A stretch of 64,000 nucleotides of DNA, from positions 416,001 through 480,000 of the forward strand of contig CAVUZH010000014.1 in assembly GCA_963745835.1 (NCBI GenBank), written 5' to 3'. The stretch's first letter is position 1, and each line of letters starts with the position of its first letter. A program made the position numbers and the translations under genes. Positions 58,146 through 60,778 of this stretch are shown one piece after another. Under the pieces are notes generated by a model, which did no database searches, had not been told where the DNA came from, and saw nothing but the letters and a program-made list of their open reading frames with translations. Source of the DNA: an uncultured delta proteobacterium (GTDB lineage: Bacteria > Desulfobacterota > Binatia > UBA9968).

Positions 58146-58625
58146 TCAATCTTTGCCCGATTGTTCCCGTAGAAAAGTCAGCACCTCTTGCGGGTGCTGA
58201 TCAGCTTTTTTGACGGTCGGCCAGTGTTTGATCACGTTGCCCCTTGAGCCGATTACCAATGTTGAGCGGATCGTGCCCTCCACGGTTTTTCCGTACATCA
58301 TCTTCTTGCCGAATGCCTGGTATTTTTTCATGACCTCGGCCTTGGGATCGGCCAAAAGCACGAACGGCAAATCGAACTTCTCAGCAAACTTCTTATGAGA
58401 AGCAATGCTGTCTTTGCTGATACCCAGAACTATCGCTCCCAGTCTTTTCATTTGCGTATTTAGCTCGCGGAACCCGCAAGCTTCCTTGGTTCAGCCCGGA
58501 GTACTGTCCTTGGGATAGAAGAATAAGACCATTTTTTGGCCGCGATAATCCTCAAGCGAATGTGTCTTGCCGTCGTGGCCTTCCAGACTGAACGCCGGCG
58601 CTTTCTGCCCCTCCAAACTCTTCAT
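58146..58625 (-). CDS. bcp: BCP/PrxQ selenoprotein (U45, UxxxxC)
   Basis: ATG 58625 with [19 protein letters not shown](58493-58491)-TKEACGFR in frame with ORF 58146-58451; aligns to Cys paralog at 60311. Confidence 0.9.
58462..58482 (-). promoter_or_regulatory. Candidate bacterial SECIS
   Basis: AGCTTGCG-GGTTC-CGCGAGCT; GGTTC starts 16 nt after TGA. Confidence 0.75.
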
Positions 58626-58933
58626 GCCCAGCCTTTCTCCTCAACCGAGAATGTAGCATTCATTGTTCGAATCGGTACGCTCTTAAGAAATCAACCCAGC
58701 GAAACGGTTTGCGGCGACAAATCGGATTAGGCGCCTCGAAAAGCCGTTCGCGCTCCTGCCATGGGATTCCTGCTACACTTCGTAGGTTTCGCGAGCTTTT
58801 TCCCAGGTACTGCGCCCAAAACCTTCGCAGAAGGGTTCGTTACTCTCCGCCATACAGGTGGCGAGATCCACTAAGTACATCTCGCGGTTCTCCGATACCG
58901 CTTTCAAGAGACGACTCTTGGTAAATTATTGCT

Positions 58934-60298
58934 TTAAGTCGAAACGCAGCGAAATTTGGCGAACACATACGGATAGTGACCTTGATACCAATTGCGAAAC
59001 GTCGGTCGCAGCAGTTCCGCCGGAGTCGCCCAGGAAGCGCCCTTGAAGACGAAGTGCTTTCCATCGAAAAAATCCTTGGAGTAGTCGGGATAGCGAGGAA
59101 TATAAGGCGTGAAGCCTGGAAACGGCGCGAATGGCGTATCGGTTAACTCCCAGCCATTACCGACCAATTCTCCGATACCCCATCGGCTCACGCCGGCTGG
59201 ATGCGAGCCTACGGGATTCGGCGACCACGAGCTAAAATCGAAATTGCCATGACGATGCGCTGGAGCTAATTCGCCCCACGGATAACGCGTCGAGATTTCG
59301 TCAGGTCCGCCGTAGCAGGCGCGTTGAAACTCCGCCTCAGTCGGCAATCGCTTGCCGCGCCAGCTAGCGTAGGCACGCGCCTCAGCAACGGTCACATAGA
59401 CCGGCCAACTGGAAACCTGGGCGAGCGGAAAGAGATCGAACATCGCTTTGTAGAGCCAGAGGCTGCCCCGTTGAAGCCAAACGCTGGGATGCTTCCTGGC
59501 GGTTTGCACTTTCCAGCGCCAATCTTCCGGTCGCCAGTAACGCTCTACATCGTAAGCGCCGGACTGCACGAATTCAAAATATTCGCCATTGGTGACCGGC
59601 ATCGAATCCATCGTAAATGCCGGTACATCGACAACCGTTTGTGAAAACTCGTTGTCCCAGCCGAAGTCTAACTCGGAAAACTTTGCGCCAAGTGAAACTT
59701 TGCCGCTCTGGTATTTCCGTTGGAACGAGAACGCGCAGCCGCCTGGAAGGAATACCGTGGTGATTTGGTTGGGCGGTTTTTTTTATCAAGCGGCAGCTCA
59801 TGCATCATATACAACAGAGTTTCTTGATGCATGTATTCATGCTCGAGAACCATTTCGAAGGCGCGCCCGTTTTGTGCCATGATATCTGAGGATTCCAAAC
59901 GCGACATCATTATCGAGCGCTTCCAAGACCGCCGAGCGAACCTGGTCGCGGTATTTCAGTACTGTATGCAGATCGGGCCAGGTCTCCGGAACCTCGGGAT
60001 GCCAATGACACTCGCCAGTGTCAACGTCCGGATCGATGCCGCGACAAAACAAATCGTCGAAATAAGGATTGAAGGACTTCCACTGCAGCAGTGCGCCACA
60101 GGTTTGATTCCAGGTGAACGCAGGAAGATGTCCGACATAAAAAATAAAAGGGTGGCGCCAGACAATCGGCTTGGTTAACATCTGATCTTCGTTGATCAGA
60201 CGAAACAGCTCATCGGTCTTAGACCAAGCCGAGTGAAACCGTGCTTCGAACCTCGCCCTCTCGACGTTGACCCGCGGTACGAATGCCCGGTTCATCAC
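58934..60298 (-). CDS. EgtB/Egt1-type non-heme-iron sulfoxide synthase (DinB + FGE-like domains); frameshifts near 59910 and 59710
   Basis: RHPFIFYVGH, RGIDPDVD..CHWHPEVPETWP, EHEYMHQETLLYM, FGWDNE, PVTNGEY, RLPTEAE, LVGNGWE, YSKDFFDGKH, RNWYQ. Confidence 0.85.
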
Positions 60299-60310
60299 GA
60301 TACCCCGCCG

Positions 60311-60778
60311 TCACTTCTGGAGAAACTGCAACACTTCACGAGGATGCTCCTCCGCATTAGCAACCGGCGCCCATTGGCGTAACACCTTACCGTCAGGACC
60401 GATCACCACCGTCGAGCGAATAGCGCCTTCGACGGTTTTGCCCTCCATATTTTTCCTCTCACCCCAAGCGCCGTAAGCCTGCATAACTTTGGTTTCGGGA
60501 TCGGAAAGAAGAGTAAACGGCAAGTTATATTTAGCGATAAATTGATTGTGCGATTCGATTCCGTCTTTGCTTACGCCCAAAACGATGGCGTTGGAATTCG
60601 TCACCGAATCGATAGAATCGCGAAAGCCGCAAGCTTCCTTGGTGCAGCCCGGCGTGTCATCTTTCGGATAAAAATAAAGGATAACGCTTTTACCTCGGTA
60701 GTCGGACAAAGAATGTCGCTTGCCATCGCTGCCGTCTAAATTAAATGCCGGCGCCTGCTGTCCTTCTAAATTACTCAT
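60311..60778 (-). CDS. bcp: BCP/PrxQ peroxiredoxin, Cys form (CxxxxC)
   Basis: [28 protein letters not shown]. Confidence 0.95.
   Translation of the reverse strand: MSNLEGQQAPAFNLDGSDGKRHSLSDYRGKSVILYFYPKDDTPGCTKEACGFRDSIDSVTNSNAIVLGVSKDGIESHNQFIAKYNLPFTLLSDPETKVMQAYGAWGERKNMEGKTVEGAIRSTVVIGPDGKVLRQWAPVANAEEHPREVLQFLQK

Follow-up and report, generated by a model that had tools for sequence, protein, structure and literature searches.

Within a 64,000-nucleotide stretch of the genome of an uncultured delta proteobacterium (GCA_963745835.1, contig CAVUZH010000014.1, positions 416,001 to 480,000; the whole stretch is referred to below as the window), a peroxiredoxin reading frame on the minus strand (58625..58146, 159 codons) has a sole interruption, a TGA at codon 45 (58493..58491). 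Does this TGA encode selenocysteine (Sec), or is it a nonsense codon or an error in the assembly? The original prediction, made from the letters of the window alone, argued for Sec, on the grounds that a cysteine (Cys) paralog nearby shares the peptide after the codon and that only the Sec copy folds into a hairpin suited to be a selenocysteine insertion sequence (SECIS). Our analysis gave the same answer for the codon: TGA 58491-58493 is very probably a functional Sec codon with a SECIS. What the pair of paralogs can be made to say about it, on the other hand, had to be revised.

The interrupted gene and its genome

The protein is a member of the AhpC/TSA family with a thioredoxin-fold domain (PF00578, E 3e-38, 131 bits). 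Its closest solved relatives are the BCPs 5enu (E 7e-31), 3ixr and 5iiz, in which the Cys of the TPGC motif aligns with U45, and the sequence around the codon, PKDSTPGU-TKEA-C50, fits the peroxidatic motif P-x3-T-x2-C/U. (The stop codon of the gene is also a TGA, at 58146-58148.) With C put for U, the best NCBIfam models were PrxQ (NF053650, 172.7 bits vs a cut-off of 260) and BCP (NF006960, 126.5 vs 140). Since these are still the best-matching models despite the low scores, the protein is best described as BCP/PrxQ-like, and not as an equivalog member. Cys50 is the fifth residue after U45 (U45-T-K-E-A-C50). A resolving Cys five residues past the peroxidatic residue is a feature of many BCP/PrxQ enzymes, and we take Cys50 to have this role here. 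In a broad contig scan, the position matching U45 was TGC or TGT in 83 of 84 BCP genes of diverse phyla; this 83:1 ratio is uninformative on the rarity of Sec forms, because one of the two search patterns contained TPGC and so biased the scan to Cys. Reading the UGA as Sec also corrects the annotation, as a gene caller would cut the peroxiredoxin in two at this codon.

The same assembly contains a full Sec machinery. A tRNA-Sec (74.2 bits, anticodon tca) is present, as are adjacent selA (608.6 bits), selB (394.3 bits) and selD (383.4 bits) genes on contig C22:65479-70161, all above curated cut-offs, and selB was found in all five relatives checked. The selD gene is itself interrupted by one in-frame TGA, in the motif AAGU, and UCGUGCAA-GUU-UUGCACGA comes about 25 nt after it. 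Six of the 12 peroxiredoxin (Prx)-like matches in the genome carry one in-frame TGA, and three of these six lie in the window. A second match to the tRNA-Sec model, at C24:91233-91318, scored 47.3 against a gathering score of 47 and could be a tRNA-Ser or contamination.

Prx (PF00578, TxxU) is an established family of bacterial selenoproteins (Zhang, Romero & Gladyshev 2006, PMC1794560; 2026 review, PMC13188914; these sources, and PMC4605307 below, are cited from the parts of their text that were available). The review tables Prx as experimentally verified (PMC13188914), and the 2006 survey inferred five Cys-to-Sec events among 12 members (PMC1794560). Like members of this family, the gene described here has the AhpC/TSA domain, Sec at T-x-x-U (T42-P-G-U45) and a SECIS immediately after it, and its Cys homologs are widespread. 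Unlike the catalogues, which lump subfamilies (those of the individual members did not appear in the available text), it can be assigned to the BCP/PrxQ type, with U-x4-C, and unlike the catalogue entries it belongs to a tandem pair of paralogs, which, taken over the genera, shows every one of the four Sec/Cys combinations. PrxU, the selenocysteine peroxiredoxin of Eubacterium acidaminophilum, reportedly described by Sohling et al. in 2001, likewise comes from a bacterium and has Sec as its peroxidatic residue, but represents another subfamily: the window protein scored 45.2 bits on the PrxU model (NF040737, cut-off 270) and best on the PrxQ/BCP models. A full-text literature search found no paper on a bacterial Sec-BCP/PrxQ; its coverage was partial, and such a protein may be in print.

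Contigs of two independent studies, and congeneric genomes as well, have the TGA unchanged. Twenty public runs of 12 studies (soil, rhizosphere and winery metagenomes) carry the stretch or part of it, and two DNA-run contigs from other studies (X3 record 12 and X6 record 19) span 58491-58493 with 0 differences, over 58276-58511 and 58276-58529. The check was made at the level of contigs, with four runs compared as contigs, and not in raw reads as the original prediction had proposed. The congeneric assemblies G004, G006 and G005 all have TGA at the same codon as U45, and an RNA-run contig across the gene (X15) comes from a relative, with 23 differences. A sequencing or assembly error at codon 45 is thus extremely improbable, even in a genome whose neighboring EgtB-like gene has been disrupted by two indels of one base each that are missing in other runs and in congeners; the errors seen are indels and not substitutions, and none touches codon 45. 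The Sec BCP of G005 (L059/L060, contig C121:112-589) keeps both TGA and hairpin and has an extra A about 10 nt past the hairpin that shifts the frame, which would make it either a pseudogene or an assembly error.

The hairpin downstream of the UGA

From codon 44, the Sec copy reads GGC TGA ACC AAG GAA GCT TGC GGG TTC CGC GAG CTA, while the Cys copy continues after its TGC with ACC AAG GAA GCT TGC GGC TTT CGC GAT TCT. Both sequences, and the positions of TGA and TGC on the minus strand, were correctly quoted in the original prediction. RNAfold confirmed the hairpin in the Sec copy, with a stem one pair longer than had been drawn (Table 2). Its loop, G-U-U, lies at 58473..58471, with a spacer of 8 nt after the UGA and 17 nt between UGA and loop. 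The minimum free energy (MFE) was -14.9 kcal/mol in 57 nt (z -1.72; 11 of 200 dinucleotide shuffles were as good) and -30.6 in 91 nt (z -2.57; 2 of 200). In the same region of the Cys copy, RNAfold gave no 9-bp GUU hairpin, and the corresponding z-scores were 0.00 (94 of 200 shuffles) and -0.40 (60 of 200). The Cys copy can fold a weaker, shifted hairpin, GGAAGCU-UGC-GGCUUUC, at -8.4 in a 30-nt window.

For a null that leaves the peptide unchanged, we folded every one of the 147,456 synonymous ways to encode residues 47-57 in the Sec copy. Only 0.23% of these reached -14.5 kcal/mol or lower (0.45% when weighted by the codon usage of the window), and only 0.057% did so with GU at the start of the loop. 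The optimum over all encodings was -15.5, less than 1 kcal/mol from the real sequence. For the peptide of the Cys copy, 9.6% of 110,592 encodings matched the real fold and none reached -14.5. For the Sec-copy hairpin, this null is sharper than dinucleotide shuffling. The original prediction had ascribed the loss of the hairpin in the Cys copy to synonymous changes. This is true of the apex, where GGG>GGC and UUC>UUU are synonymous, but the 3' arm differs by E54-L55 vs D54-S55, which are not.

Bacterial SECIS elements are stem-loops within the coding region just past the UGA, bound by the winged-helix domains 3-4 of SelB (PMC13188914, PMC4605307). As far as the available text goes, the published bacterial SECIS (bSECIS) model specifies a loop of 3-9 nt, an upper stem of 4-16 bp, a G in the first two loop positions and a distance of 16-37 nt from the UGA (PMC13188914), and another account gives a stem of 6-8 bp and a conserved loop G about 20 nt past the UGA (PMC4605307). 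The 9-bp, GUU-loop hairpin at 58462..58482 agrees with the bSECIS model on every count. It follows that we are dealing with a new gene of the Prx family and not with a new mechanism: the gene is an ordinary further case of a known selenoprotein family, and the accepted mechanism of Sec insertion is unchanged. In the same genome, the TGA codons of selD and of two more Prx-like genes are likewise followed by a GUU triloop on a G+C stem.

Like the consensus bSECIS and the SECIS of E. coli fdhF, the hairpin lies within the coding region and has a small apical loop, about 20 nt past the UGA, whose first two bases are G-U. The fdhF SECIS has a bulge; the window hairpin is dissimilar to it in sequence and lacks the bulged U (the hairpins of the Cys copy's lineage and of a sister family, described below, have a one-base 3' bulge). 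Also unlike fdhF, it is the codons for the catalytic motif, C-G-F-R, that spell out the upper stem and loop of the window hairpin. An RNA signal can thus be encoded within catalytic-motif codons.

In the mechanism that we propose, the C-terminal winged-helix domains of SelB would bind the 21-nt hairpin that starts 8 nt past the UGA and whose apical loop opens with an exposed G-U some 20 nt from the codon. The UGA would then receive Sec-tRNA(Sec), brought by SelB, and not release factor 2. In the finished protein, the selenenic acid formed on U45 by peroxide would be resolved by Cys50 to give a U45-C50 selenenylsulfide, with thioredoxin as the probable reductant. The Cys paralog would use the same chemistry via cysteine and have no need of the hairpin.

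Orthologs with UGA and orthologs with cysteine

We searched 123 genomes of the order and found BCP orthologs in 83 of them. Together with 60 further regions that were fetched, these gave 108 distinct rows, and 100 near-full-length BCP genes (66 UGA, 34 Cys) were scored after eight partial or frameshifted rows and three unpublished genomes had been left out. The genes belong to two tandem paralog lineages, denoted P1 (the lineage of the window's Sec copy) and P2 (that of its Cys copy), and to a sister family. GU was present in the loop of the MFE hairpin in 66/66 UGA genes, compared to 9/34 Cys genes, and a 30-nt window folded at -10 kcal/mol or better in 52/66 and 0/34, respectively, with median energies of -12.6 and -6.35. 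Within the window's own family, the codon for Gly51 was GGG in 40/40 UGA vs 5/34 Cys genes, and GGGUUC was found in 38/40 vs 3/34. Hence the pattern that the original prediction had named as evidence against itself, GGUUC present regardless of UGA, was not seen.

The proposal that GGUUC is what SelB recognizes did not survive the comparison. Two UGA genes (in G096 and G090) have GGUUU, and in seven others GGGUUC forms one arm of a different hairpin's stem. The sister family has AGUAU, AGUUU, GGUAU or AGUCU. GGGUUC also occurs in three Cys genes and, in the broad contig scan, in L068. The determinant that remains is a stable stem carrying a loop that opens with G-U. As this is already the published bSECIS rule, to judge from the available text (PMC13188914), nothing new is pinpointed.

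Constraint on synonymous sites provided a measure independent of folding programs. Synonymous differences were compared between codons 48-56 and the rest of the gene (Table 1), and the synonymous sites of codons 48-56 are frozen in the Sec forms only.

Table 1. Synonymous differences in codons 48-56 and in the rest of the gene.
Group	Codons 48-56	Rest of gene	Ratio	Remark
P2 Sec (n=27)	0.095	0.462	0.20	among the two lowest of 91 nine-codon windows
Sister-family Sec (n=26)	0.083	0.266	0.31	lowest window
P1 Sec (n=13)	0.339	0.503	0.67	mixed hairpin types
P1 Cys (n=26)	0.503	0.503	1.00	
P2 Cys (n=8)	0.343	0.409	0.84	

The UGA genes do not all use the same hairpin. The first design is that of the window, which requires Glu54 (GAG), and the second is a variant of it with a GGUUU loop. 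The third, found in P2, is GCGUGCGG-GUU-CCGC(G)ACGC and goes with Ala55 in 27/27 Sec genes, vs Ser55 in 8/8 Cys genes. In the fourth, that of the sister family, the resolving Cys (C50) is mostly Arg. The sister-family hairpin, GGCCCGUA-GUA-UACGGG(A)CC, is paired in 99.5% of cells (a value reached by 0/500 shuffles; slid controls gave 4-53%), with one compensatory pair, U-A/C-G; the other changes pair via wobble, bar one unpaired cell. A stable stem and a loop opening with G-U about 20 nt from the UGA are the only features that all designs share. The embedded SECIS has a cost to the protein: D54E in one lineage, A55 in another and loss of the resolving Cys in a third. The collection of 66 UGA and 34 Cys genes, all for the same enzyme, spans two paralogs and no fewer than four hairpin designs and constitutes a well-controlled natural data set for the rules of bacterial SECIS elements. 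An unrelated Sec BCP (DNTSGUTKEAAGFRD) was seen in L070, a delta-proteobacterial metagenome-assembled genome, with the hairpin GGAAGCC-GCA-GGCUUCC and Ala in place of the resolving Cys; this hairpin is in the register that Cys genes often adopt by default.

The comparison bears on whether the TGA could be a nonsense codon, either in a pseudogene or in a gene split into products of 44 and 101 aa, with the hairpin as a by-product of the conserved A-C-G-F-R codons. In two families, 66 genes in all retain the TGA at this very codon, which is hard to reconcile with this idea. An open reading frame of 101 aa with its own ATG does lie downstream, and the G005 copy has its one-base insertion past the hairpin. 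However, the ratio of nonsynonymous to synonymous differences (pN/pS) is equally low on either side of the TGA (0.14-0.25 downstream vs 0.03-0.20 upstream in four pairwise comparisons), indicating that purifying selection continues past the UGA, as it would in a gene that is translated through. As for the by-product, the C-G-F-R codons of several Cys genes from genomes rich in G+C (L063, L064, L062, L069, L065) do fold into a small hairpin, GCGG-NUU-CCGC, but the synonymous sites are frozen in UGA genes only, and the real encoding falls in the top 0.23% of the synonymous alternatives. Together with the Sec machinery in the assembly, these findings make nonsense very improbable. In this respect the original prediction is borne out, on the strength of the machinery, the conserved TGA, the downstream purifying selection and the association of UGA and hairpin over 100 orthologs.

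It is also improbable, to nearly the same degree, that the UGA encodes Sec but that the 9-bp hairpin is not the SelB site, some other element serving instead, or that the hairpin acts mainly in mRNA stability or ribosome pausing. The case for this alternative comes from seven UGA orthologs (in G099, G065, G067, G077, G075, G063 and G066) that lack a strong hairpin in register. These fold UUGCGG-GUU-CCGUGA, with two wobbles, or the alternative GGGUUC-CGUGAYUU-GAACYC, in which GGGUUC is a stem arm and not a loop, and their synonymous sites are conserved over GGG UUC CGU GAY UUG AAC. In addition, the GUU loop of selD is about 37 nt from its UGA, instead of about 21 as in the Sec BCP. Nevertheless, some GU-loop hairpin occurs in the folding window of 66/66 UGA genes, the frozen synonymous region coincides with the hairpin, and the position, stem length and loop G-U of the window hairpin all fit the bSECIS model, in so far as its text was available (PMC13188914). 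In the same seven P1 genes (L142, L144, L150, L165, L154, L167 and L156, in the order of the genomes above), CGU GAY replaces CGC GAG and the strong hairpin is lost.

A number of points weigh against reading the TGA as a Sec codon served by this hairpin. The shuffle z-scores of the Sec-copy hairpin alone are modest (-1.7, -2.6), the hairpins of the seven orthologs just described are weak (-4.7 to -7.7, in the range of the Cys genes), three Cys genes retain GGGUUC, and the protein falls under the NCBIfam equivalog cut-offs for PrxQ and BCP with C for U. The assembly comprises 25 contigs with 9.3% estimated contamination, and the Sec machinery is on other contigs, tied to that of the BCP by binning. 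The sole RNA-library contig that matches exactly (X16, 58280-58488) includes the hairpin and downstream coding sequence but ends 3 nt short of the UGA, and RNA libraries may carry DNA. A quick tree of 111 rows gave seven Sec/Cys changes, three of them in P1 and two in P2, with two phylogenetically independent contrasts on well-supported branches and six on all branches, too few to give a sign test any power, and an approximately unbiased (AU) test did not reject a single Sec clade for P2 (p 0.78). Finally, SelB binding and selenium insertion at U45 are predictions. The analysis itself establishes the codon, the hairpin, the Sec machinery, the conservation, the constraint on synonymous sites and the purifying selection through the UGA.

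The paralog pair and its neighborhood

The Sec and Cys BCPs of the window (Table 2) are 59% identical, with the Cys copy, also an AhpC-TSA protein (PF00578, E 1.6e-39) and with TGC at codon 45, located 1.7 kb upstream. The original prediction had treated the pair as an internal control. It is not a clean one, because the paralogs are old and either copy has Sec as well as Cys orthologs of its own in other genomes. P1 and P2 have Sec and Cys, respectively, in the window's own genus; Cys and Sec in many genomes of genus g17; Sec in both copies in ten genomes; and Cys in both in G003, G069 and G062. The idea that the last three had lost the Sec trait was rejected, as selB is above its cut-off in all of them. 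The C-G-F-R codons give the upper stem almost free, which may explain why switching between Sec and Cys is easy.

Table 2. Features of the locus, with positions in the window.
Feature	Position	Strand	Evidence or remark
Predicted Sec-containing BCP/PrxQ-type peroxiredoxin gene	58146..58625	minus	159 aa, U45, PF00578
UGA codon 45, probably read as Sec, peroxidatic position	58491..58493	minus	alignment, conserved TGA
Candidate SECIS hairpin AGCUUGCGG-GUU-CCGCGAGCU	58462..58482	minus	RNAfold, 9 bp, 21 nt
UGC codon of Cys50, putative resolving Cys, in 5' arm of SECIS	58476..58478	minus	sequence
EgtB/OvoA/SenA-like gene (DinB_2 + FGE-sulfatase), between the two BCPs	58934..60298	minus	split in three frames here
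Cys BCP paralog, 155 aa, without SECIS-type hairpin	60311..60778	minus	TGC at 60644-60646, PF00578
LysR regulator, 'selenium metabolism-associated' NF040786	60960..61928	minus	directly upstream of Cys BCP; 267.5 bits vs cut-off 250

Two Cys genes bear traces of a Sec past. P1 of G064 has TGC, yet also the Sec-lineage residue S41 and GGGUUC, and P2 of G069 has TGT and keeps GCGUGCGGGUUCCG. Both look like Sec-to-Cys reversals with remnants, a direction deduced from the sequences. According to the available text of the review, such reversal is rare outside FdhA and SelD (PMC13188914), and the G064 gene would be one of these rare cases. SECIS-like hairpins that remain after a change from Sec to Cys have been described for Mannheimia FdhA and a Desulfitobacterium HesB-like protein (Zhang et al. 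2006, PMC1794560, in the part available). The G069 and G064 genes similarly keep parts of the hairpin, but they differ in that the remnants are in a peroxiredoxin, beside a second paralog of opposite state.

The EgtB-like gene is a single open reading frame of 457-465 aa in G004, G006 and G005, and is frameshifted only in this assembly. Contigs from other runs omit one base near 59705 and one near 59907, and the break is likely due to assembly indels or specific to the strain. The gene is kept at this position across the family and scored under the cut-offs of the three models it resembles (OvoA 271.6/400, EgtB 221.9/360, SenA 220.2/420). The NF040786 LysR regulator is found at the same locus in G004 (269.1 bits) and G099 (267.7), there between P2 and the EgtB-like gene; the literature search turned up one incidental mention of this family name. 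In genus g17 (L142:3503-4363, G099), a PhnD-like periplasmic binding protein is encoded between the EgtB-like gene and P1, and its match in L142 to TIGR04553, a family of putative selenate ABC binding proteins, is weak (65.8 bits vs 250).

A broader picture, which we consider doubtful but worth stating, would be a conserved cluster in which a selenium-associated LysR and an EgtB/OvoA/SenA-like enzyme accompany tandem BCPs that toggle reciprocally between Sec and Cys, Sec-to-Cys reversals included, as isoenzymes tuned to the selenium supply, in genomes all of which retain SelB. Toggling would be cheap in such a cluster because the active-site peptide, A-C-G-F-R-D/E, is a latent SECIS palindrome. 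To make or unmake the signal would then take one switch between UGC and UGA, some synonymous substitutions and no more than a single conservative replacement (D54E or S55A). Methanogens have Sec/Cys isoenzyme pairs that act as selenium-dependent back-ups. Here, too, Sec and Cys forms of one enzyme are encoded in one genome, and the adjacent LysR regulator is the only hint of selenium-linked control. Two switchable BCPs linked to a selenium-associated LysR and an EgtB-like enzyme are nonetheless a testable lead for the selenium biology of soil bacteria.

The other two Prx-like genes of the window with an in-frame TGA lie at some distance from the pair. One, at 63568-64000 on the minus strand, runs off the end of the window; its TGA, at 63895-63897, is in the motif DFTGGU and is followed by a longer structure on GCUUCGAA...UUCGAAGC with no obvious GU triloop. 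The other, at 41070-41381 on the plus strand, has its TGA at about 41187-41189, in the motif DFSPTU. The hairpin GUCCG-GUU-CGGAC follows, with the loop about 25 nt from the UGA, and a close paralog with the same hairpin is found on contig C3 (L030).

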